A stretch of 64,000 bases of DNA from sequence record PX246730.1, one strand, 5' to 3'. The stretch is from a phage. Shown in pieces: positions 8,326 through 62,464 of this stretch (positions within the stretch are counted from its first letter, which is position 1; each line of letters opens with the position of its first letter). The notes beneath the pieces are model-generated. The model saw only the letters and a program-made list of their open reading frames with translations, did no database searches and was not told where the DNA came from. Both the position numbers and the translations under genes were made by a program.

Positions 8326-8531
8326 TGCTTTACAGTCGTGAATTGATGGTTACAACTAACGTTAACACAAAGGTAAAACGTTTTTACATGCAAATTTGTG
8401 ACGTATGGTCTAGAATATCAGAAGCTGACTATTGCAACTATGTAGAAACAGCTATAAACTCTAATTGCTACCTTACAAGAAATACTAAGAATTTTACAAG
8501 GCAAACAGCGATTTACTGTTACGATAAATAA
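8325..8531 (+). CDS. hypothetical small protein
   Basis: start ATG overlaps upstream stop (TAATG). Confidence 0.4.
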   Translation: MLYSRELMVTTNVNTKVKRFYMQICDVWSRISEADYCNYVETAINSNCYLTRNTKNFTRQTAIYCYDK

Positions 8532-8544
8532 AAGTACTTTACAT

Positions 8545-8573
8545 GGGGCTTATAGTTCGATAAAGTAAGCCCC
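8545..8573 (+). repeat. intergenic hairpin B (GGGGCTTA-13nt-TAAGCCCC), copy 1
   Basis: perfect 8-bp stem; same sequence found 5 times. Confidence 0.7.
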
Positions 8574-8620
8574 AGATAAAGAGCTTTACCAAATTAAACC
8601 TTAAACTAGGAGATTCAAAA

Positions 8621-9001
8621 ATGGCTTATCGTGCACCGAAATTCATCAACAAAGACAACTTCCGCAACGCACTGGAGAAGTCACTTGATGAAAAATTTAA
8701 CGGCAAATTGATTGTTGTTCACGCATTCAATTTTAAGTATGATGTAAACGGGAATAGAATCAACCATTACACGGCAACCATGTTAGATGGTACACTTTCA
8801 AGTGAAAAAGCCGTACTAAATGCACTGGCAGGACGTGGAAAGGTATTAGTAAGATGTGATAAGAGACGTTATCAGGGCGGCGCATATGGTTATGATGATG
8901 CTGTTTACCATCTTGAAAATATGGGCTATCAAGTAGAAAAAGCTGGAGCATCACAAATCATCGGCAGCGATGGTTATGTAACTATCTTCAAAATTAACTG
9001 A
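8621..9001 (+). CDS. hypothetical protein
   Basis: 126 aa; conserved leader ACTAGGAGATTCAAAAATG. Confidence 0.55.
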   Translation: MAYRAPKFINKDNFRNALEKSLDEKFNGKLIVVHAFNFKYDVNGNRINHYTATMLDGTLSSEKAVLNALAGRGKVLVRCDKRRYQGGAYGYDDAVYHLENMGYQVEKAGASQIIGSDGYVTIFKIN

Positions 9002-9016
9002 TAAAGTACTTTACAG

Positions 9017-9045
9017 GGGGCTTATAGTTCGATAAAGTAAGCCCC
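9017..9045 (+). repeat. intergenic hairpin B, copy 2
   Basis: identical stem-loop. Confidence 0.7.
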
Positions 9046-9090
9046 AGATAAAGAACTTTACCACTAAATCCTAAATTGGAGGACTTAAAA

Positions 9091-22599: not shown

Positions 22600-22991
22600 A
22601 GATAATCCTCTTGTCTTCTGTAATTTTGAAAGAACAGGTACAGACCAATTTCAGAGGATGAATAGTAGAGTAACTCTACCCTTTTTGATTCCTTACAGTG
22701 ATTGGTATTTTTACCTTTCTTCGGGTTGTTTGATTTTCTCATTAAGTCTCCTTTGTAGAACAAGGCAGACCTACAGCTTTAAGTAAGATGGTACAGTAAT
22801 CCATACAACAAGTCAAGAACTATTGCAAGTTAAAAAAGTTGTTGACAAGGTACTTGACAAGGTGTAGGCTTATAAATACTTAGAAGATTACTTAAAAGGT
22901 TCCTCTAAAAAGGCTATTTAAACAGATATCTTTCTGGATATCTATCTTTTATCTTAAAAGCCTTTTAAGAGGTCTTATAAGAGGCATACCA

Positions 22992-23444: not shown

Positions 23445-24860
23445 ATGAGCGAGTTATTCAAACATGCGCACCTTCATGCAGGTCGAACTGAAAATGGTGC
23501 TGTAAACCATACTTCATCAATGTCTGCTCTGGTAGACTTCTACAAAGCCGCTGGCTCAAGCCGTAGCAATGTAGAAATCTTACCAGACCTGTTCTACAAA
23601 GCTTTGCGTGAGGATGTTGATGTTGCAGTTCGTATTTTACTGCATATGCGAGATGTACGAGAAGGTATGGGTGAGCGTAAAGCCTTCAGAACTGTTTTGC
23701 TTCAAGCGATTGAAGACAAAGTTTTAGAGCCTACACAGGTTCTTCGCATTATGGATAAGATTGCAGAGCTTGGTCGTTTTGATGACTTCAAAATCTTCGT
23801 AGGTACTCGTTTTGAGACAGATGCCTTTAAGCATTTAGAAGCAGCATTACTAGACCCTGAGACAGCAGGTTTAGCAGCCAAGTGGTTACCACGAGTAAAA
23901 CCACGACACAAACAGTTTGTAAAACGTTTCTGTAAGTTTGCAAACTTAAGCGAGAAAGAGTATCGCACACTGTTATCTGCACTGTCTGATACGGTTGAGC
24001 AAAAAATCTCTGCTAATGAGTTTGGTAAGATTGATTACAGTAAGATTCCTTCTCTTGCTGCTGCACGTTACCAAAAACTCTTTAACCGTAAAGATGGAGA
24101 ACGCTACAAAGCTTACATTGAGTCGCTATCAAAAGGTGAAGCTAAGATTAATGCTGGTGCTGTCTACCCATACGATGTGATTAAATCTATCAAGCATGGT
24201 AATGCAGATGTTGCTAATGAGCAGTGGAAAGCACTACCAAACTGGATGGCAGAAGGTGAGAACATCTTGTGTATGACTGATGTCTCAAGCTCAATGTCTT
24301 GGGTGAATCTTGGTTCAATCACGGCTCTTGATATTGGTGTATCTCTTGCCCTGTATGTAGCAGAACGCAATACTGGTTGCTTTAAGAATGAGTTAATGGT
24401 TTATTCAACAAACCCTCATTTCATTGAACTGAGTGGTGATTTACGAAACCGTCATCGTCAGGTGATGCGACACGTTGAATATGGTTCAACTAACTTACAA
24501 GCAGCTTTTGACCGTATTCTTGAGACAGGTAAAAGAAACAACTTGACTCAGAAAGATATGCCAAGTAAGCTTATCATCTTCTCAGATATGGAATTCAATC
24601 AGGTTGATGGAGCTAATGGTCGTACAAACTTTGAAGCAATTCAGAGTAAGTACAAAAAAGCTGGATATGAGATGCCACAACTGGTATTCTGGTACTTAGC
24701 AAACCGTAATGGTACTTGCGAAGTGTCTGTTAAGGATAACGGTGTAGCAATGGTATCTGGTTTCTCTCCAGCCACTTTAAAAGCTCTGCTTGGTGGTGAG
24801 AAGTTTGACCCAACCAGCGTAATGCTCAAAGCAGTAATGATTGACCGTTACATCTGGTAA
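23445..24860 (+). CDS. vWA-domain protein resembling Ro60/Rsr (TROVE + vWA)
   Basis: MIDAS motif DVSSSM followed by LGSI; C-terminal IIFSDMEF and GFSPATLKAL segments resemble Ro60 vWA (from memory); N-domain not verifiable. Confidence 0.55.
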   Translation: MSELFKHAHLHAGRTENGAVNHTSSMSALVDFYKAAGSSRSNVEILPDLFYKALREDVDVAVRILLHMRDVREGMGERKAFRTVLLQAIEDKVLEPTQVLRIMDKIAELGRFDDFKIFVGTRFETDAFKHLEAALLDPETAGLAAKWLPRVKPRHKQFVKRFCKFANLSEKEYRTLLSALSDTVEQKISANEFGKIDYSKIPSLAAARYQKLFNRKDGERYKAYIESLSKGEAKINAGAVYPYDVIKSIKHGNADVANEQWKALPNWMAEGENILCMTDVSSSMSWVNLGSITALDIGVSLALYVAERNTGCFKNELMVYSTNPHFIELSGDLRNRHRQVMRHVEYGSTNLQAAFDRILETGKRNNLTQKDMPSKLIIFSDMEFNQVDGANGRTNFEAIQSKYKKAGYEMPQLVFWYLANRNGTCEVSVKDNGVAMVSGFSPATLKALLGGEKFDPTSVMLKAVMIDRYIW

Positions 24861-24998: not shown

Positions 24999-25025
24999 TG
25001 GTTACATAGAGTTTGAAAAGTTTAT

Positions 25026-25102
25026 CTCTGTTTAGCTCAGCTTGGTAGAGCGTTCCGTTTGGGGCGGTAAGGCCGGAGGTTCAAGTCCTCCAACAGAGAC
25101 CA
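25026..25102 (+). tRNA. tRNA-Pro(TGG)
   Basis: 7-bp acceptor CTCTGTT/AACAGAG, D-loop AGCTTGGTA, anticodon loop TTTGGGG, T-loop TTCAAGT, CCA encoded. Confidence 0.75.
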
Positions 25103-25109
25103 AATTAAT

Positions 25110-25187
25110 GTTCCAGTAGACAAAATGGTATAGTCACCACTCTTTCAAAGTGGATATTTGAGGGTTCAAATCCCTTCTGGAACGCCA
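25110..25187 (+). tRNA. tRNA-Glu(TTC)
   Basis: acceptor GTTCCAG/CTGGAAC, anticodon loop CTTTCAA, T-loop TTCAAAT, CCA encoded. Confidence 0.7.
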
Positions 25188-25192
25188 GTTTT

Positions 25193-25267
25193 GACAGAAG
25201 ACCAATTGCAGCAAACTTAATCTTATTCATCTGAAGGTAAATCGGACAAAGAAGAGATTTGGTCTGG
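25193..25267 (+). ncRNA. framed element a (ACAGAAGACC ... GGTCTGG closing stem)
   Basis: member of 4-copy family with covarying closing stem; function unknown. Confidence 0.3.
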
Positions 25268-25279
25268 TCATTAAGAATT

Positions 25280-25355
25280 GCGGGTATAGAGAAAGGGCGT
25301 CTCACATGTCTCATTAGCATGGTATCGGCAGGTTCGACTCCTGCACCCGCCTCCA
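25280..25355 (+). tRNA. tRNA-Met/Ile2(CAT)
   Basis: anticodon arm CATGT-CTCATTA-GCATG, T-loop TTCGACT; acceptor register ambiguous. Confidence 0.55.
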
Positions 25356-25360
25356 AATTT

Positions 25361-25436
25361 ACAGAAGACCGTTTACAGCAATACTTATTAAATTTTTAGC
25401 GGAAAAAATTGAAAGATACGGTCTGGTAATACTAAA
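25361..25436 (+). ncRNA. framed element b
   Basis: AGACCG/CGGTCT closing stem (compensatory change versus element a). Confidence 0.3.
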
Positions 25437-25439
25437 CAT

Positions 25440-25513
25440 GGTTAGGAAGCACATAAGGTATGTGCGGTCGCCTGTTAAGCGAATGGCACAGGGTTCGAAT
25501 CCCTGACTAACCG
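25440..25513 (+). tRNA. tRNA-Asn(GTT)
   Basis: D-stem GCAC/GTGC, anticodon loop CTGTTAA, T-arm CAGGG-TTCGAAT-CCCTG. Confidence 0.7.
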
Positions 25514-25525
25514 CAAAATTTAAAT

Positions 25526-25613
25526 GTGTCGTTATCCCGTAGATGGTAGCGGTGGGGACTGTAAATCCCTTGTCATTGAGACTCGGTAGGTTCGACTCCT
25601 ACACGGCACACCA
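25526..25613 (+). tRNA. tRNA-Tyr(GTA), long variable arm
   Basis: acceptor GTGTCGT/ACGGCAC, anticodon loop CTGTAAA, 15-nt variable arm, CCA encoded. Confidence 0.7.
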
Positions 25614-25674
25614 ATTTTGAGAGGGCTATTTAGCCCCTCCCTTAAAGAGTTCTTACGAGTATTCTTTAAAGGAG

Positions 25675-25748
25675 CAGAAGACCAAATACAGCAAGTTACT
25701 TAAAATTTCAAGCCAATTTAATTTTGAAAAATTTAAAACTTGGTCTGG
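25675..25748 (+). ncRNA. framed element c
   Basis: AGACCA/TGGTCT closing stem. Confidence 0.3.
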
Positions 25749-25760
25749 CTCAACAAATTT

Positions 25761-25893
25761 ACAGAAGACCGTTTACAGCAAAACTTAAACAATCTATTTC
25801 TCTGGTAAAGAAAAGGCGAAGGTTCGATTCCTTCACTCGGCAGATGTCGAGTTGGTGTAATGGTAGCACTTAAGATGATAAACAACGGTCTGG
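25761..25893 (+). ncRNA. framed element d enclosing permuted tRNA halves
   Basis: GACCGTT/AACGGTC closing stem surrounds 25797-25870. Confidence 0.35.
25797..25870 (+). tRNA. candidate circularly permuted tRNA-Thr(GGT): 3' half precedes 5' half
   Basis: 3' half = anticodon arm TTTCT-CTGGTAA-AGAAA + T-arm GAAGG-TTCGATT-CCTTC + ACTCGGC; 3 nt later 5' half GTCGAGT + D-arm GTGT-AATGGTA-GCAC; acceptor strands complementary at 7/7 with one GU. Confidence 0.4.
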
Positions 25894-25896
25894 TAA

Positions 25897-26036
25897 TTAT
25901 CTTTGTAGATAAGTTATTAAGCTTACCTGTGAGTATGCGACCACAAAGGGTGAAAGGGTAAATTCTAGATTTAAACCCAACAAGGCACATCGCTACAGAC
26001 CTTAAGCAAGTCTGGGTAGCTTATCTACAAAGATAA
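25897..26036 (+). ncRNA. ~140-nt element closed by 15-bp stem (TTATCTTTGTAGATAAG / CTTATCTACAAAGATAA)
   Basis: long-range perfect inverted repeat. Confidence 0.3.
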
Positions 26037-26042
26037 TTTAAT

Positions 26043-26118
26043 GGAAGTGTAGCAGAATGGTGATGCGGCAGACTTTTAATCTGACAGGCGATGGGTTCGA
26101 ATCCCTCCACTTCTACCA
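26043..26118 (+). tRNA. tRNA-Lys(TTT)
   Basis: acceptor GGAAGTG/CACTTCT, anticodon loop CTTTTAA, T-loop TTCGAAT, CCA encoded. Confidence 0.7.
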
Positions 26119-26122
26119 ATAT

Positions 26123-26199
26123 GGTTCAGTCGCAGATAAGGTAATGCAGGGGTCTCATAAGCCCTATGAATGTGGGTTCGATTCCCATCTGAACCTCCA
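26123..26199 (+). tRNA. tRNA-Met/Ile2(CAT)
   Basis: acceptor GGTTCAG/CTGAACC, anticodon loop CTCATAA, CCA encoded. Confidence 0.7.
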
Positions 26200-26201
26200 A
26201 T

Positions 26202-26277
26202 GCTGTGAAAGCACATATGGATGTGCATTCGGCTGATAACCGAAAGGAAGAAGGTTCGAATCCTTCTCACAGTACCA
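26202..26277 (+). tRNA. tRNA-Ile(GAT)
   Basis: D-stem GCAC/GTGC, anticodon arm TTCGG-CTGATAA-CCGAA, CCA encoded. Confidence 0.75.
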
Positions 26278-26290
26278 ATTTCAATAAAGT

Positions 26291-26319
26291 TGTTGACACT
26301 GAGATGTGACTACTTTATA
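26291..26319 (+). promoter_or_regulatory. strong sigma70-like promoter TTGACA-N17-TATAGT inside tRNA array
   Basis: read directly. Confidence 0.6.
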
Positions 26320-26526
26320 GTAACCTTAGTTTTCGTTGCGTAGCGTCTATTTTGCAAATTTAAAATAAATGCAAACGACAATGTTTTTCTGGCAGTAGCT
26401 TGATAGGCTAAACACCAGTGAGGTCTTCCAATCCCTCATCAAAGAATTTGGCGTACTAGCCCACGGTATGATTAATAAGGTGGGCATCTTTAAGGGCTTT
26501 CTAAGAGAGTCTTTAAAGATTAATTA

Positions 26527-26608
26527 CGGGGCGTATCTCATCTGTCTTCTAAACAGACGTTAACCGAGTAAGTGGAGTATGCGGGTTCGAGTCCTGCCGC
26601 CTCGACCA
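26527..26608 (+). tRNA. non-canonical tRNA-like element with Arg(TCT)-type anticodon hairpin and no recognisable D-arm
   Basis: acceptor CGGGGCG/CGCCTCG, hairpin TCTGT-CTTCTAA-ACAGA, 23-nt extra segment, T-arm GCGGG-TTCGAGT-CCTGC, CCA encoded. Confidence 0.4.
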
Positions 26609-26751
26609 ATTTAGTTAGCAGATTACTTAGACGACCTAAGCGGGTCTTCCTGTAGGGAGGTGGTCTGTATCTCATGTTTTCCAGAACATGTAAATAATCT
26701 GAGAAGGGGCTTTACAGTGTTGAGATAATACGGTAAGCTTCGAATTATAGT

Positions 26752-26834
26752 ATGGGACGATGTTAAGACTCTAAGGCATGAGCAACGGCTTCCAACACCG
26801 TTTCAAAGGGGTTCGACTCCTCCGTCCCATGCCA
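26752..26834 (+). tRNA. tRNA-Trp(CCA), atypical (extra nt between acceptor and D-arm)
   Basis: acceptor ATGGGAC/GTCCCAT exact, anticodon loop TTCCAAC, CCA encoded. Confidence 0.55.
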
Positions 26835-26847
26835 AAGTCTTATTAGG

Positions 26848-26935
26848 GGTAGGTAGCGGCTAATGGTAGCCAAACTGTCTTGAAAACAGTTGCCACTGTA
26901 GAGATACGGTGAGGGTTCGACTTCTTTACTTACCG
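26848..26935 (+). tRNA. tRNA-Ser(TGA), long variable arm
   Basis: anticodon arm ACTGT-CTTGAAA-ACAGT, 20-nt variable arm, T-loop TTCGACT. Confidence 0.7.
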
Positions 26936-27091
26936 CCTAATAAGATTTTAAAGCCAAGCTTCATTCGGATGTTGCTTTGGTATCCCTCGTGTTGTCGAAC
27001 ACACTAATAAAGCACCTAGTAGGTGTCACGGAGAAGAGATAATATCAAGCTCTCCAAAGGTTCTAGTCACCGGATTAAACAAGACTATGCA

Positions 27092-27112
27092 AAGACCTTT
27101 TTAGGTCTTTTT
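27092..27112 (+). terminator. hairpin AAGACC/GGTCTT plus T-tract inside tRNA array
   Basis: read directly. Confidence 0.45.
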
Positions 27113-27191
27113 AGAGGGCTTCTAAGGTTATTACAGCTTGTTGTGGAACCTTGTTGCTTAGGTTCTTAGAAGTTCTCTAAAAAGATTTAAT

Positions 27192-27269
27192 GGGAGATTG
27201 ACGGTAATTGGTAAACCTATCTCGCTTAGAACGAGATGTTTGAGGGTTCGAATCCCTTGTCTCCTACCA
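27192..27269 (+). tRNA. tRNA with anticodon TAG (Leu-type), short variable loop
   Basis: acceptor GGGAGAT/GTCTCCT (GU ends), anticodon arm TCTCG-CTTAGAA-CGAGA, CCA encoded. Confidence 0.6.
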
Positions 27270-27276
27270 AATTAAT

Positions 27277-27352
27277 GCAGGTGTAGCAAAATGGTTATGC
27301 GGCTGACTCTTAATCAGTAAGACGATGGGTTCAATTCCCTCCACCTGTACCA
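27277..27352 (+). tRNA. tRNA-Lys(CTT)
   Basis: acceptor GCAGGTG/CACCTGT, anticodon loop CTCTTAA, CCA encoded. Confidence 0.7.
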
Positions 27353-27358
27353 GATATT

Positions 27359-27434
27359 GGGGATGTAGTTTACATGGTTAAAACATAAGTTTTGCAAAAT
27401 TAAGTACAGGGTTCAATTCCCTGCTTCTCCACCA
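27359..27434 (+). tRNA. tRNA-Ala(TGC)
   Basis: D-stem GTTT/AAAC, anticodon loop TTTGCAA, T-arm CAGGG-TTCAATT-CCCTG, CCA encoded. Confidence 0.65.
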
Positions 27435-27440
27435 ATTAGT

Positions 27441-27515
27441 GCATCCATAGTTTAAACGGGAAAATTACAGTCTTCCAAACTGAGGTTGAGGGTTCGATTC
27501 CCTCTGGATGCTCCA
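27441..27515 (+). tRNA. tRNA-Gly(TCC)
   Basis: acceptor GCATCCA/TGGATGC exact, anticodon loop CTTCCAA, CCA encoded. Confidence 0.7.
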
Positions 27516-27521
27516 AATAAT

Positions 27522-27598
27522 GCTGCTTTCGTATAATTGGCTATTACACATCCCTTGTAAGGATGGAAATGCAGGTTCGAGTCCTGTGAGCAGCACCA
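27522..27598 (+). tRNA. tRNA-Thr(TGT)
   Basis: anticodon arm CATCC-CTTGTAA-GGATG perfect, T-loop TTCGAGT, CCA encoded. Confidence 0.75.
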
Positions 27599-27602
27599 AT
27601 TC

Positions 27603-27688
27603 AGAGGTCAAGTGAAAGACCGCTGGTGTCAACTGAAGACCGTAACAAATTCCACGGAGTTGAGTTAGCGGCACAACTTCAGACCTCT
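27603..27688 (+). ncRNA. framed element f (AGAGGTC ... GACCTCT) containing GAAGACCG motif
   Basis: long-range 7-bp inverted repeat between tRNAs. Confidence 0.3.
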
Positions 27689-27693
27689 TTCAC

Positions 27694-27768
27694 ACTCGCT
27701 TAGTTTATATGGTAAAACACCACCCTTACAAGATGAAGAAAAAGGTTCAAGTCCTTTAGTGAGTACCA
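27694..27768 (+). tRNA. tRNA-Val(TAC)
   Basis: acceptor ACTCGCT/AGTGAGT, D-stem GTTT/AAAC, anticodon loop CTTACAA, CCA encoded. Confidence 0.6.
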
Positions 27769-27769
27769 T

Positions 27770-27847
27770 GTTCCAGTATCCCAATTGGCAGAGGATGCAA
27801 GCTCAAACCTTGTACTAGTGACGGTTCGAATCCGTCTTGGAACACCA
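27770..27847 (+). tRNA. tRNA with anticodon CAA (Leu-type), short variable loop
   Basis: acceptor GTTCCAG/TTGGAAC, anticodon arm GCAAG-CTCAAAC-CTTGT, CCA encoded. Confidence 0.6.
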
Positions 27848-27852
27848 ATTTT

Positions 27853-27928
27853 GCAGGATTAGTTCAAATGGATAGAGCAACAGTCTACGAAGCTGTTAAT
27901 AGGGGTTCGAATCCCTTATCCTGCGCCA
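27853..27928 (+). tRNA. tRNA-Arg(ACG)
   Basis: acceptor GCAGGAT/ATCCTGC exact, anticodon loop CTACGAA, CCA encoded. Confidence 0.7.
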
Positions 27929-27947
27929 ATTTAAAGAGGCTATTTAG

Positions 27948-28505
27948 ATGAGATATTTGAAGTATGCTTCATGGATTTTCTTAGCTTTGTTAGAGCCATT
28001 TGCAGCAATCTTAGCAGTAATTTTAGCACCCTTTGTGGTTCCATTCTACAGTGAAAAGAAAGGACACTTACCTTTTGGATTCAGATGGATGGAGACTTAT
28101 GATAACCCAATTGATGGTGACAAAGGCCACGTTGAGAGATGGGCTAAGATTAGAAAGATTGGTAAGCTCGGTGTTTATATGCAGAGAGTTGGATGGCTCT
28201 GGAGAAACAAAGCTTATAACTTCTCTTACCATGTGCTAGGAAGAGATGTAAAAGATGTTACTAAGTGGAAAGGTAATATCAACGTAAGTTCTAACCCTGA
28301 AGATAATCAGACAGGTTATCTCCTAATGTGGAACAGTAATGCTTGGGGATTATTCGCTTTTACCCCATCAATTAAAATCTTTGGTAAACAATTCTACTGG
28401 AGAATTTATGTTGGATGGAAACTTAAAAGTGTTGTCCCAGAAGAAAGAGCATTCTCAAGGGAAAGAGTTATGTTGGCATTCTTTATTCATCCACTAAGAA
28501 AGTAA
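27948..28505 (+). CDS. membrane protein encoded inside tRNA array
   Basis: 185 aa; N-terminal TM IFLALLEPFAAILAVILAPFVVPF; ATG verified. Confidence 0.45.
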   Translation: MRYLKYASWIFLALLEPFAAILAVILAPFVVPFYSEKKGHLPFGFRWMETYDNPIDGDKGHVERWAKIRKIGKLGVYMQRVGWLWRNKAYNFSYHVLGRDVKDVTKWKGNINVSSNPEDNQTGYLLMWNSNAWGLFAFTPSIKIFGKQFYWRIYVGWKLKSVVPEERAFSRERVMLAFFIHPLRK

Positions 28506-28513
28506 AGATTTAA

Positions 28514-28589
28514 AGGGGATTAGTTTACAAGGTTAAAACCTCGGTCTTTGAAATCGAAGAAGTTGGTTCAATTCCAACATCCCCCACCA
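28514..28589 (+). tRNA. tRNA-Gln(TTG)
   Basis: D-stem GTTT/AAAC, anticodon arm TCGGT-CTTTGAA-ATCGA, T-arm GTTGG-TTCAATT-CCAAC, CCA encoded. Confidence 0.7.
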
Positions 28590-28591
28590 AT

Positions 28592-28670
28592 GCTCCATTA
28601 CTCCAATTGGCAGAGAGGCCAGACTTAAAATCTGTGTTATGTATCGGTTCGAATCCGATATGGAGTACCA
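28592..28670 (+). tRNA. tRNA with anticodon TAA (Leu-type), 7-nt variable loop
   Basis: acceptor GCTCCAT/ATGGAGT, anticodon loop CTTAAAA, T-arm ATCGG-TTCGAAT-CCGAT, CCA encoded. Confidence 0.55.
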
Positions 28671-28675
28671 AATTT

Positions 28676-28751
28676 AGCGGTATAGCATAACTGGCAATGC
28701 AGCAGTCTCTGAAGCTGTCCTATTAAGGTTCAAATCCTTATGCCGCTGCCA
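28676..28751 (+). tRNA. tRNA-Gln(CTG)
   Basis: D-stem GCAT/ATGC, anticodon loop CTCTGAA, T-arm TAAGG-TTCAAAT-CCTTA, CCA encoded. Confidence 0.7.
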
Positions 28752-28782
28752 CTTCTAAGGGTTCTTACGAGAGTCCTTAAAT

Positions 28783-28858
28783 GTGGCCTTATCATAAAAG
28801 GTAATGACCCATGCTGTGAACATGGTCTATACGGGTTCAAATCCCGTAGGTCACCCCA
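28783..28858 (+). tRNA. tRNA-His(GTG)
   Basis: anticodon arm CCATG-CTGTGAA-CATGG perfect, T-arm ACGGG-TTCAAAT-CCCGT, CCA encoded. Confidence 0.75.
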
Positions 28859-28863
28859 ATTTA

Positions 28864-28937
28864 TAGTCCAAGTAGCTTATATGGTAAAGCGCGTGTCTGA
28901 AAAACATGAGAAGAGGGTTCAAATCCCACTGGACTAC
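28864..28937 (+). tRNA. tRNA-Phe(GAA)
   Basis: acceptor TAGTCCA/TGGACTA exact, anticodon loop CTGAAAA; 2 extra nt before D-stem. Confidence 0.6.
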
Positions 28938-28955
28938 CAATTTCAAAGGTGCTTA

Positions 28956-29690
28956 ATGAAAGAGATGACAGAACAAGGTAAGGAGATTTTTAATCTCTTA
29001 AAAACCGGTAGAGGGTTTTCTAATCCCCTTATTACTGGTGCAGCAGTTCTCGGTGGAACCGTAGCTGCCTCTACATCACTTGTAAGCTCTATTAGCTCTG
29101 TAACAGACCCTACAATAAAAGATAAGCTTGTTGCTGCTGGGCTTACAACAGTCCTCCTAAACAGCTTTACAACAAGCCTGACAAGCACTACAGCAACTAC
29201 TAAGACCCTGACAGACTACGGTCAAAAGTCTATTGATGAGTTTTCATCACGTATGCAGGTAGCAAAGGGATACTCCAATGTTATGGGTGCAGCAGGAGAA
29301 CAAGTTGGTTGTACACCATTCAGTGGTATTATGGGTGTTGCTACAGAGTATGGTCAAAAAGCTATTGACATGATGAACAGTACACTAGATAGTGTTAATG
29401 GTGTGTTAAGTGACTTACAAGATGCTATTGATAAGGGTCTTGATACTGTTTCTGATTTAGCTAACCAAGCTGTTAGTAAGATTAATGAAGGTATCTCGAA
29501 GATTACAGCTTATGCAGATGAAGTTGTGCAGATGATTGAAGAAGAAGCTGCCCTTATTGCAGAGTACCTTAAAACGAATATCAATGGGTTCTTAGCAGGT
29601 ATCTTACCAGACTGGTTTGATGATGCCTGTAAAACTGGTGTAATTGACACTATTGCAACACCAGAAATGAAGAGCGCATTACAGAAATAA
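28956..29690 (+). CDS. hypothetical protein (Ser/Thr-rich N-region)
   Basis: track ORF 28740 reads through three tRNAs; start moved to first ATG downstream of tRNA-Phe. Confidence 0.4.
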   Translation: MKEMTEQGKEIFNLLKTGRGFSNPLITGAAVLGGTVAASTSLVSSISSVTDPTIKDKLVAAGLTTVLLNSFTTSLTSTTATTKTLTDYGQKSIDEFSSRMQVAKGYSNVMGAAGEQVGCTPFSGIMGVATEYGQKAIDMMNSTLDSVNGVLSDLQDAIDKGLDTVSDLANQAVSKINEGISKITAYADEVVQMIEEEAALIAEYLKTNINGFLAGILPDWFDDACKTGVIDTIATPEMKSALQK

Positions 29691-29691
29691 T

Positions 29692-29784
29692 GGAAGATTA
29701 ACCCTAAAAGGTAAGGGAGCAGTTTGCTAAACTGCCAGTAGCTGAGAAATCGGTGTACCAGTTCAAGTCTGGTATCTTCCTCCA
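29692..29784 (+). tRNA. tRNA-Ser(GCT), long variable arm
   Basis: acceptor GGAAGAT/ATCTTCC exact, D-arm CCC..GGG, anticodon arm GCAGT-TTGCTAA-ACTGC, 21-nt variable arm, CCA encoded. Confidence 0.75.
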
Positions 29785-29788
29785 ATTT

Positions 29789-29864
29789 GAATCCGTGACA
29801 GAAATGGATATGTGCCTGTCTGCAAAACAGGTTTATAAGGGTTCGAGTCCCTTCGGATTCTCCA
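29789..29864 (+). tRNA. tRNA-Cys(GCA)
   Basis: acceptor GAATCCG/CGGATTC exact, anticodon arm CCTGT-CTGCAAA-ACAGG, CCA encoded. Confidence 0.75.
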
Positions 29865-29901
29865 AGTTATTTTACTCTCTCTCAATTAAAATAATAATAA
29901 T

Positions 29902-29961
29902 GCCCTGCTATAAGTATTCTTCCTTTCGCTACCGAAGAGTATTTTTAGACAGGGCTTTTTT
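29902..29961 (+). terminator. long hairpin terminator after tRNA array
   Basis: GCCCTG ... CAGGGC enclosing inner stem, then TTTTTT. Confidence 0.6.
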
Positions 29962-30026
29962 ACAGAGTTATACTTTATAGGAAGACTTATACAGTATGTC
30001 TCTGACGTACATTGTGGTTTCTCCTT

Positions 30027-50749: not shown

Positions 50750-50795
50750 TTTCTTTACAGGGGCTTTATAGCCCCTTTTAAGAGGAAAAATTATA

Positions 50796-57320: not shown

Positions 57321-57405
57321 AATGACCTCAAAGTTATATTAAATTTTGTATTACATTGAGTATAAAATAAGCTATAACACCTGACTTGTCAACAGATTTT
57401 ATAGC

Positions 57406-57830
57406 TTATTTAGCAGATTTTTTATAAGGCTACTGCCATCCTTCCATACATTACCTTACCACACCCTACCATACCTAACCAAACTACACCATACCATACC
57501 TAACCAAACTACACCATACAATACCTTTTTAAAAGACCTTGTTTAAAGGCCTTTTAAAAAGGTAAGTCTCATTTTAATGTAGCTGAGACTAACTACCCAT
57601 ACATTACCTTACCATACCAGACCTCACCCTACCTTAACTTACCTTACTCTATCCTACCAAACACCACTTAAAAACCCTCTTAGAAGACTCTTAAGTGATG
57701 TAATCGGATTTTTATGTAGCTCCGATTAACTACCCATACCAAGCCTAACCTGACCGCACCAAACCTTACAACACCACACCATACCAAACCTCATTAAAAG
57801 ACCCTCTTAAAGACCTTTTAAAAAGGAGCC
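57406..57830. repeat. left copy of ~0.4-kb composite direct repeat (C/A-rich tracts, TTAAAAG boxes, covarying hairpins)
   Basis: near-identical blocks shared with 58965-59265. Confidence 0.7.
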
Positions 57831-57853
57831 TCCGAAGAGGCTACCTAGTCAAC

Positions 57854-58294
57854 TTAGAAAGGTTTTCTACGTTGCTTGTTAATGTTAGCTTTCATAGCAG
57901 CTAAATGGTTTTGCTGTTCAATCAGTCGTGAACGTTCTTGATGACTAAGTGCCATAGTGTTCACATTCTCAATCGCTTGAGTGGCTTGCTTTAAAGCGCG
58001 ACCAATCTTACCAGACATTTTACGTTTTGCAATAGTTGCTTGATGCTTAGGTTCAACCACACGATAACCAACACCCATTGAAGCAACCAGATAAATCTTC
58101 TCTTCTTTAAGAAGCTTCTCAATAAACTTCTCAAGTCGGTTTAGACGTGTAAGCGCATAAGCCTTCATTTCATCTTCGTACTTAACAATGTCGCCTTGAT
58201 AAGTTGGCTTCACAATACCTAAGAAGGTATCCATCTCAGAGTGTGATACAGTGTCACCGTAACTAAACTTTGCTGCTAATGCTTTTGTATTCAT
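57854..58294 (-). CDS. hypothetical protein
   Basis: 146-aa ORF inside repeat-bracketed unit. Confidence 0.5.
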   Translation of the reverse strand: MNTKALAAKFSYGDTVSHSEMDTFLGIVKPTYQGDIVKYEDEMKAYALTRLNRLEKFIEKLLKEEKIYLVASMGVGYRVVEPKHQATIAKRKMSGKIGRALKQATQAIENVNTMALSHQERSRLIEQQNHLAAMKANINKQRRKPF

Positions 58295-58296
58295 AA

Positions 58297-58902
<606 letters not shown>

Positions 58903-58964
58903 TTAGTTGATTGTTAAGTTGTTTGTAAAGAACCCTCAACAGAAGACTCTTTAGAAACTTGGCA

Positions 58965-59265
58965 GATTTTTTATAAGGCTACTGCCATCCTTCCATACAT
59001 TACCAAACAGTACCGTGCCACAACACACCATACCCAACCCCACCTAACTCTACCACACCTCATTAAAAGACCTTGTTTAAAGACCTTTTAAAAAGGTAAG
59101 TCTCATTTTAATGTAGCTGAGACTAACTACCCATACATTACCTTACCATACCGTACTTTACCTTACCGTACCGTACTTTACCCTACCGTACCGGACAATA
59201 CTTAACCCGACCTCGCCCTACCGGACATCACTTAAAAACCCTTTTAAAAGACTCTTAAGTGATGC
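58965..59265. repeat. right copy of ~0.4-kb composite direct repeat
   Basis: shares GGCAGATTTTTTATAAGGCTACTGCCATCCTTCCATACATTACC and GTCTCATTTTAATGTAGCTGAGACTAACTACCCATAC blocks with left copy. Confidence 0.7.
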
Positions 59266-59329
59266 TGGTGAGTACCCGTTGGTTTATGCTGCTCAGTATA
59301 CTCACCAAATTTTCTATGTCAACAACTTT

Positions 59330-62193: not shown

Positions 62194-62464
62194 CTGGTCA
62201 ATACACTCGCAAGGTGTACCAGTTCTCTTATGAACTTCTCCGCATTTCTACGGAGTGTCGGACTATATCACGTAGTAGTAATACTACCGTTGCACTTGGG
62301 AATGGTCATTAGCTTACCACCCTACTCTACTCAGTTCATACATTAAGTATGCTTTTCGATAGTCTCTGAACGTTCCTCTTAAGAGGCTTCGCTGCTGATT
62401 ACCATATCTTTACAGACTTAGGCTTCCAGCAATTCACAACGTTTTACATGCGCCACTGACGCAT
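62194..62464 (-). mobile_element. group I intron (ORF-less) in DNA polymerase gene
   Basis: on the RNA strand, in order: P AAUUGCUGGAAGCC, Q AAUCAGCAGC, R GUUCAGAGACUAUCG, S GAUAUAGUCCGACA; interrupts reading frame within motif B; splice sites approximate. Confidence 0.8.

Follow-up and report, generated by a model that had tools for sequence, protein, structure and literature searches.

What are the palindromic elements that recur in the intergenic DNA of this phage: sites in the DNA itself, or structures of the RNA copied from it? The question is raised by positions 25,614 to 28,782 of the stretch of phage DNA analysed here (sequence record PX246730.1, 64,000 nt, hereafter the window). Judged from its sequence, the window is the genome of a Felixounavirus, a Felix O1-like myovirus; over bases 25000-30000 it agrees at ~97% with Felix O1 and with many Felixounavirus records. 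An earlier note had described inverted repeats built on CTTAAAG cores and read them either as binding sites for a phage-encoded regulator, for example a late-promoter box of the T4 kind, or as structured RNA motifs. Its observation was borne out in part, and so was its interpretation. The elements are structures of RNA, at work in the transcript, and not boxes in the DNA; they belong to an ordinary kind of element, intergenic RNA hairpins.

Ten elements, each taken on its transcribed strand, align as a single family of ~35 nt with the consensus YUUWAARRG-YYUUC-loop-GAGRGUYYUUWAAR. The stems are AU-rich (24-40% GC) with several G·U pairs, and the loops are small: UAA, UAAG, UAAAC or UACG, the last of the stable UNCG type. 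RNAalifold folds the ten paralogs into a single helix in which five pairs are changed on both sides. We built a covariance model (R1) from the copies themselves; in a scan of the window it gives them 31-48 bits (all E <= 6e-4), while the highest non-member score is 20 bits, if one disregards an echo of 24.6 bits on the antisense strand of the near-perfect palindrome 57525-57560. Because the ten copies are the training set of R1, independent support comes from relatives of the phage. One copy lies at 12.32 kb, three lie at 25.64, 26.49 and 28.75 kb in the array of transfer RNA (tRNA) genes, and six are found between 57.5 and 59.3 kb (Table 1).

The three inverted repeats from which the earlier note started do exist (25640-25672, 26486-26520 and 28757-28781; it had placed them 1-3 nt off), and the covariance model also recovers the copies it had suspected at 12.3 kb and in the 57.5/59.1 kb repeats. 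Of two further places it named, 22.9 kb holds a weak relative only, a leader in which long-range pairing covers the AAGAGG ribosome-binding site and both strands fold alike (z -2.6). At 13.4-14.1 kb there are no family members (E >= 1), although the block is rich in the same short words. The words by themselves are weak evidence: CTTAAAG is not enriched genome-wide (14 found, 17.7 expected). The central motif common to distant copies, GTTCTTACGAG, does occur exactly two times (25649 and 28761), but by estimate a lone shared 11-mer in 64 kb is not significant. The count of CTTTAAAG is marginal (7 vs 3.0 expected; 2/100 shuffles reach 7). Within non-coding DNA, CTTNNAAG is enriched (28 vs 5.3 ± 2.1 in dinucleotide shuffles) and CTTWWAAG is found 17 times vs 2.7 ± 1.7. 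Some word matches are merely a terminator T-run followed by a ribosome-binding AAGAGG, as at 50775.

There are two important aspects of the evidence for RNA. Firstly, the family has a strict polarity. Early genes occupy the plus strand up to 13.27 kb, followed by a 1.8-kb untranslated block (13.27-15.06 kb). Minus-strand genes extend to 22.76 kb; a plus-strand unit of ~22.8-53.8 kb then carries the DUF5681 gene, a 471-amino-acid DUF2828/DUF7788 gene, the tRNA array and the structural genes, and after 53.8 kb the replication genes lie on the minus strand. All ten copies are on the locally transcribed strand, plus at 12 kb and in the tRNA region and minus at 57-59 kb. In the loci of ten relatives, every one of the 33 R1 hits with E <= 0.01 is likewise on the sense strand. 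The arms pair through G·U wobbles, at which the opposite strand has C·A mismatches. Folding favours the sense strand: H5 reaches -16.2 kcal/mol on the plus strand vs -9.8 on the minus strand, and H3 -40.8 kcal/mol sense (z -5.3) vs -28.0 antisense. The fraction of paired cells, sense vs antisense, is 98.4% vs 91.8% for H1, 99.3% vs 88.7% for H4 and 96.2-98.1% vs 77.5% for H3.

Secondly, substitutions among relatives preserve pairing (37 related loci, from relatives 84-99% identical). Pair A35-U50 of H1 has become G-C in 8 loci, with G·U intermediates seen. In H4 a G·U pair is replaced by A-U in three of the ten distinct variants. The H1 loop is UGCG in one locus and the H4 loop is UGCG in phage Barry; in these UACG loops that is the only change seen, in two independent cases. 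One pair of H3 has changed from U-A to G-C and eight others vary on a single side with pairing kept, and its inner insert is replaced in Mooglevirus. Changes in H2 are wobble-compatible, and in Felix O1 and Mijalis the H2 site is taken by another long hairpin, so that structure is kept there and sequence is not. H5 has an ortholog in Felix O1 (R1 26.4 bits); an R1 scan found no further family copies in the last 26 kb of that genome. Family-wide, 93.3% of cells are paired, four of ten pairs are changed on both sides and 0/500 shuffles reach the covariation score, in an alignment (A10) that was fitted to the model and whose pair counts are therefore biased upward. Loops and inserts vary while stems hold, variation is rarer in paired columns than in unpaired ones, and the family is conserved with its pairing in Felixounavirus and Mooglevirus. 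It is the polarity, the asymmetry of G·U pairing and folding, the pairing-preserving substitutions and the constraint of UACG loops to UGCG that identify the elements as RNA; the structured-RNA suggestion of the earlier note is upheld by sense-strand folding, polarity and conserved pairing.

As to position, the elements occur almost only in loci making non-coding RNA. The tRNA array at 25.0-29.9 kb holds 25 tRNAs in total (24 called by ARAGORN and one weak tRNA, 26527-26605, added by Rfam). Its spacers are mostly 2-8 nt, and the hairpin family fills the long ones. Copies here abut tRNA 5' ends and also bound a Y-RNA-like unit and an RNA resembling transfer-messenger RNA (tmRNA). H1 stands after tRNA-Tyr (tRNA-Asp in relatives) and a 14-nt GC hairpin, before the Y-RNA-like units. 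H2 forms the end of the promoter-driven tmRNA-like RNA and stops 6 nt short of the tRNA-like gene at 26527, and H3 ends 1 nt before the 5' end of tRNA-Leu. H4 takes up the entire 31-nt spacer between tRNA-Gln(CUG) and tRNA-His and overlaps the 5' end of the latter with its own 3' end. In relatives the hairpin/tRNA junctions hold whichever tRNA comes next. The 57-59 kb copies separate tandem GGUNN-repeat modules. The association with transcript boundaries, whose absence the earlier note had named as a refutation, is there: copies stop 1-6 nt short of tRNA 5' ends or mark the limits of units of non-coding RNA. Upstream of the structural and late genes (30-53 kb) there is no significant R1 match. 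None of the family hairpins is followed by a U-tract (3' flanks are GGAGCAG, AUUAAUUA, AUUUAAUG and AUGUGGCC) and none was called in the terminator scan; they are thus not intrinsic terminators, a class with GC-rich stem and U-tract that their stem composition rules out as well.

Table 1. Hairpins of the family and other features of the window. R1, covariance model; blocks A and B, repeat blocks described in the text.
Feature	Position	Strand	Description	Score or fold
H5	12317..12362	+	family hairpin, arms AUCUUAAAGGG / UCUUUAAAGAU	R1 37.9 bits, E 2.4e-5
H1	25637..25674	+	family hairpin, UACG tetraloop; 15 bp with bulges	R1 38.9 bits
H2	26486..26520	+	16-bp uninterrupted family hairpin	R1 35.4 bits; -19.7 kcal/mol on +, -5.7 on -
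H3	27098..27190	+	24-bp (24-27 bp) stem of the same sequence words, split by 40-nt insert	-40.8 kcal/mol, z -5.3
H4	28750..28784	+	family hairpin, UACG tetraloop, 10 + 5 bp	R1 37.2 bits
M3	57522..57564	-	19-bp family hairpin between two GGUNN arrays, block A	R1 41.6 bits; -23.9 kcal/mol, z -5.9
M1	57661..57701	-	19-bp family hairpin CACUUAAGAGUCUUCUAAGAGGGUUUUUAAGUG, block A	R1 34.7 bits; -19.1 kcal/mol on -, -6.6 on +
M5	57789..57826	-	16-bp family hairpin, just downstream of UUCG terminator ending gene 57854-58294	R1 47.7 bits
M6	58921..58958	-	16-bp family hairpin, distal end of block B, beside promoter-like site of gene 58297-58899	R1 31.4 bits
M4	59056..59098	-	18-bp family hairpin between GGUNN arrays, block B	R1 42.4 bits; -16.0 kcal/mol on -, -10.5 on +
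M2	59225..59265	-	19-bp family hairpin, block B	R1 36.6 bits; -20.3 kcal/mol
Weak relative	22888..22983	+	structured 5' leader of DUF5681 gene	R1 16.6-20 bits, E 0.18-1
Group I intron	62238-62521	-	interrupts region corresponding to Felix O1 DNA polymerase gene	Rfam RF00028, 64 bits
93-nt intergenic cassette	8530-8622, 9002-9094, 10082-10174, 10881-10973, 13266-13358		five copies, early region	

Taking the existence of a family, its polarity, the selection on pairing and the position at RNA boundaries together, we infer punctuation of non-coding RNA precursors. We hypothesize, with moderate confidence, that the hairpins act in polycistronic precursors as processing or stability signals, either RNase III sites or exonuclease barriers. 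In the first case, double-stranded stems of 16-27 bp would be cleaved by host RNase III. This enzyme processes T7 transcripts and T4 tRNA precursors. The E. coli enzyme accommodates ~22 bp of double-stranded RNA (PMC6212723); set against a criterion of ~20-22 bp, stem length is 24-27 bp in H3, 18-19 bp in M1-M4 and 16 bp in H2, M5 and M6. In the second case, RNase P or RNase E might cut beside a hairpin and leave it at the 3' terminus, where it would block 3' exonucleases. By either route, the hairpins would set the ends and lifetimes of neighbouring RNAs.

Several observations speak against this reading. For a substrate of RNase III, H1 with its bulges and H4 with its divided stem are short. 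The proximity of H5 and M2 to promoters would fit a role in transcription as well: H5 is located in the leader upstream of the open reading frame 12428-13003, with two TTGACA hexamers just upstream of it and an A14 run behind it (the promoter scan found no full consensus promoter nearby), and M2 lies ~30-70 nt downstream of a strong promoter, TTGACA-16-TATACT (59322-59295, minus strand). The sense strand is G-rich genome-wide (GC skew ~+0.1), a bias that is enough to favour G·U over C·A. With relatives so similar, the covariation is modest, that of H3 is matched by 7/500 shuffles, and the upward bias of the family-wide pair counts has been mentioned. Finally, a literature search found no cleavage or transcript-end data or maps for any Felixounavirus.

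A rather improbable alternative is that the elements are recombination linkers, short dispersed homologies that drive gain, loss and shuffling of tRNA genes and cassettes in the manner of the promoter-early stem-loop (PeSL) cassettes of T4-type phages, RNA structure being incidental. Synteny among relatives indeed breaks exactly at hairpin edges: tRNA-Tyr, tRNA-Asp or another gene stands before H1, the tRNA-like gene or tRNA-Arg after H2, and two different tRNAs after H3, and a two-gene cassette (57854-58899), missing in many relatives, has a hairpin-rich block on either side. However, breaks beside tRNA genes are expected because these genes are modular anyway, and DNA homology needs neither wobble and compensatory substitutions nor sense polarity. 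Nor would it account for the hairpin at the H2 site of Felix O1, which differs in sequence. The insertion sites of HNH endonucleases in Felix O1 do not coincide with the hairpins.

Similarly unlikely, in our opinion, is that the hairpins are RNA signals recognised by a protein other than a nuclease. They might be helices for a Ro60-like protein (23445-24860), or antitermination elements of the nut/put type that allow read-through of terminators. The first version draws on the DUF2828/DUF7788 gene directly upstream of the tRNA array, on a preprint which reports that the Bas63 homolog is structurally Ro60-like (10.1101/2024.10.10.617714), and on the YrlA-like RNA after H1. Yet no solved Ro60 structure matches the 471-amino-acid protein in sequence, so its Ro60 likeness rests on the preprint and on Pfam DUF2828/DUF7788, and the hairpins lack the conserved bulged helix of the Y-RNA type. 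The second version would suit H5 and M2, within ~70 nt of promoter elements, and the genome paper of Felix O1 states both its temporal control and its terminator read-through as unexplained (PMC3185647). Some copies also contain GGUCUUUAAACA, which is loosely BoxA-like. Against it, the members do not qualify as BoxA/nut sites, each having at least three mismatches to GCUCUUUAACAA, only two of the ten copies are promoter-proximal, and H1, H3, H4, M1 and M3-M6 are far from promoters.

We regard as very improbable that the elements work at the DNA level, as CTT-N2-AAG quasi-palindromes ~11-12 bp apart that bind a phage or host protein in the service of regulation, late promoters, an origin or packaging. 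The five-fold enrichment of CTTNNAAG in non-coding DNA would agree with it, as would the 11 of 28 such copies in the 13.27-15.06 kb block, where they occur with 12-bp tandem units such as GGCTTGTTAGAG, and an alternative parsing divides each hairpin into three direct units. Nevertheless, the strict sense polarity is not expected of such sites, G·U pairs are mismatches in a DNA palindrome, and substitutions keep the pairing, not the word. The copies in the 13-15 kb block fall outside the family, so this block may be a separate phenomenon. With the T4 late promoter box TATAAATA, to which the earlier note had likened the elements, they share a short AT-rich word repeated in non-coding DNA. Unlike that box they have no fixed site upstream of late genes, and what recurs is a strand-specific RNA pairing of ~35 nt in RNA clusters. 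Polarity, pairing-preserving substitutions and the lack of a significant copy at 30-53 kb contradict the regulator-site and late-box proposal; a sigma-70 or T4-late-like promoter box is ruled out also by position, copies being downstream of promoters or between RNA genes. Chance is scarcely credible: functionless palindromes might arise in non-coding DNA that is AT-rich in this window, and the core heptamer is not enriched genome-wide, but stems of at least 14 bp number 14 in non-coding DNA vs 1.08 ± 1.11 in dinucleotide shuffles, fold z-scores of the hairpins are -3 to -6.6, and copies are conserved, pairing included, in two genera.

Among known systems, the RNase III sites of T7 (R0.3-R18.5) and the RNase III step of T4 tRNA precursors are similar to our preferred reading of the hairpins as processing signals in that some ten related intergenic hairpins lie on the transcribed strand, a tRNA cluster included, and in many of them the stem comes close to two helical turns (16-27 bp). 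In contrast to T7 sites, the stems here are mostly uninterrupted, rich in AU and G·U and without the T7-typical internal loop; two family members are also shorter than usual substrates. Tuerk et al. (1988) reportedly described 'CUUCGG' hairpins in intercistronic regions of T4, unusually stable stem-loops with UNCG tetraloops. H1 and H4 recall these by their UACG loops (UGCG in variants) and by being intergenic, on the sense strand and presumably RNA-stabilising, and several terminators in the window have UUCG loops. Members of our family do not form the C(UNCG)G class, since the closing pair of H1 and H4 is U-A, with C-G one step below, and the other eight have no UNCG loop. Unlike the T4 hairpins they have arm sequence in common, which makes them a repeat family and not mere carriers of a loop motif.

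Like PeSL cassettes and the bacterial palindromes REP and BIME, the hairpins are dispersed imperfect extragenic palindromes, transcribed, situated at boundaries of variable modules and flanking an optional cassette. Unlike PeSL they have no internal promoter, and unlike REP they are not GC-rich and have no known link to transposase or gyrase. At the gathering threshold, Rfam families found in the window are only tRNAs and the group I intron. For three hairpin regions searched at E <= 1-5 nothing relevant appeared, H3 giving a spurious 32.7-bit match to a plant microRNA family. Direct repeats, promoters and terminators are catalogued in the genome paper of Felix O1, but the hairpin family does not appear among them (PMC3185647).

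A wider proposal, which we consider doubtful, would make the hairpins punctuation marks common to a whole phage factory of non-coding RNA. One dedicated activity (host RNase III or a phage factor) would release and stabilise a YrlA-like RNA with a Ro60-like partner, a tmRNA-like template and GGUNN small RNAs. If this is true, the family would mark an RNA-based module for host takeover, so far unrecognised, in Felix O1-like phages, which are used in typing and therapy of Salmonella and E. coli. The conserved boundary hairpins are concrete, mutable targets for studying maturation of the tRNA array. The family also helps to delimit several unannotated RNAs, and its value is mostly that of a guide to the non-coding RNAs which the region contains.

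The RNA that H2 closes has a strong sigma-70 promoter, TTGACA-17-TATAGT (26293-26321, plus strand), which is predicted to drive an unannotated transcript to 26520. Inside lies a tmRNA-like tag frame (26371-26403), AUAAAU-GCA AAC GAC AAU GUU UUU CUG GCA GUA GCU UGA, which reads ANDNVFLAVA-stop and has no in-frame start codon. The tag of E. coli tmRNA is ANDENYALAA. Unannotated homologs of the template are found in Kuttervirus Vi01 and in Klebsiella siphophages, and hairpins downstream of it covary among them. An exact-pattern scan of IMG/VR returned 103 contigs, every one with 10 codons and a stop (TAA, TGA or TAG). Synonymous changes occur among them, and the encoded peptides, ten in number, fit the pattern AN[D/E]xx[F/Y]LAVA. 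Rfam models of tmRNA and permuted tmRNA match the 26293-26520 RNA below threshold only, and ARAGORN calls it a permuted tmRNA in relaxed mode only. No convincing candidate for a tRNA-like partner came to light. For enterobacterial phages, a survey of 2014 has no tmRNA on its list (PMC4131195).

Directly after H2 comes the tRNA-like gene 26526-26605 (plus strand), which has no D arm. Its acceptor stem CGGGGCG/CGCCUCG contains G3·U70; A73 and an encoded CCA come after the stem, and the anticodon-like loop reads CUUCUAA. G3·U70 with A73 and CCA is the alanine identity set used by tmRNA. ARAGORN makes no call here, the Rfam tRNA score is 33 bits, and in Barry, CL1, Z31 and Mijalis an ordinary tRNA-Arg(UCU) occupies the position.

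Behind H1, two units share the same stem ends, CAGAAGACCAAAUACAGCAA...CUUGGUCUGG. The first is tRNA-less (25676-25752, plus strand). The second, a candidate YrlA-like Y RNA that would mimic a permuted tRNA (25764-25895, plus strand), lies ~900 nt downstream of the 471-amino-acid gene. It shows, in the order given by the crystal structure paper on YrlA, an outer stem of 7 bp (AGACCGU/ACGGUCU), the T arm GAAGGUUCGAUUCCUUC, then a closed acceptor-like hairpin and lastly a D arm. Relatives show three unrelated sequences in the acceptor-like hairpin, where three pairs are doubly compensated; Rfam gives no match for the candidate. Next to it, at 25895-26038 (plus strand) and directly before tRNA-Lys, a 22-bp stem AAUUAUCUUUGUAGAUAAGUUA / UAGCUUAUCUACAAAGAUAAUU encloses ~100 nt. 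It covaries in Mooglevirus-type relatives (GUAGAUAAG/CUUAUCUAC vs GCAGUGAC/GUUACUGC) while the interior diverges. Further downstream, a small terminator-like hairpin (27091-27112, plus strand; AAAGACC-loop-GGUCUUU, then U's) keeps its stem and varies its loop in relatives. Since its 3' arm is part of the 5' arm of H3, the two structures are mutually exclusive, and the pair may be a switch between termination and read-through inside the tRNA array.

The repeat blocks at 57321-57853 (A) and 58900-59329 (B) have the minus strand as sense and are made of tandem modules. Each module comprises a family hairpin, ~12-16 GGUNN pentamers (70-90 nt), a conserved AUGGGUAGUUA and the hairpin GUCUCAGCUACAUUAAAAUGAGAC. 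Block B begins at the strong promoter upstream of M2, and relatives without the cassette between the blocks carry a single block. The GGU phase is constant in wV8, Mijalis, dune and NS7, whereas the NN bases are hypervariable there, as is the number of repeats. Rfam finds no match in the blocks. The arrays could possibly be a protein-binding RNA platform or sponge, a C-rich antisense rut site, or two-tetrad G-quadruplexes.

The untranslated block at 13269-15065 has no open reading frames; it lies between convergent transcription units, with terminators at its bounds. It is dense in CTTNNAAG, GCTATAAAG, CTTGTTAG and TGTTAAG, and carries the 12-bp tandem units at 14791-14843. It diverges faster than the tRNA array and the surroundings (85-91% vs 96-97% identity). 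The NBEco005 record was opened inside it, and the block may hold an origin, a packaging site or the genome ends, for which the literature on these phages gives direct terminal repeats only.

The early region has repeats of its own. The 93-nt cassette contains a promoter-like TTTACA-17-TAAAGT and a spacer with a GGGGCUUA...UAAGCCCC hairpin, and thus resembles the promoter-stem-loop layout of T4-type PeSL cassettes; part of it is given as a 57-bp direct repeat in the Felix O1 genome paper (PMC3185647). A second early repeat, a GGGAGG...CCUCCC hairpin with a ribosome-binding region, is present in six copies between 8.09 and 13.07 kb.

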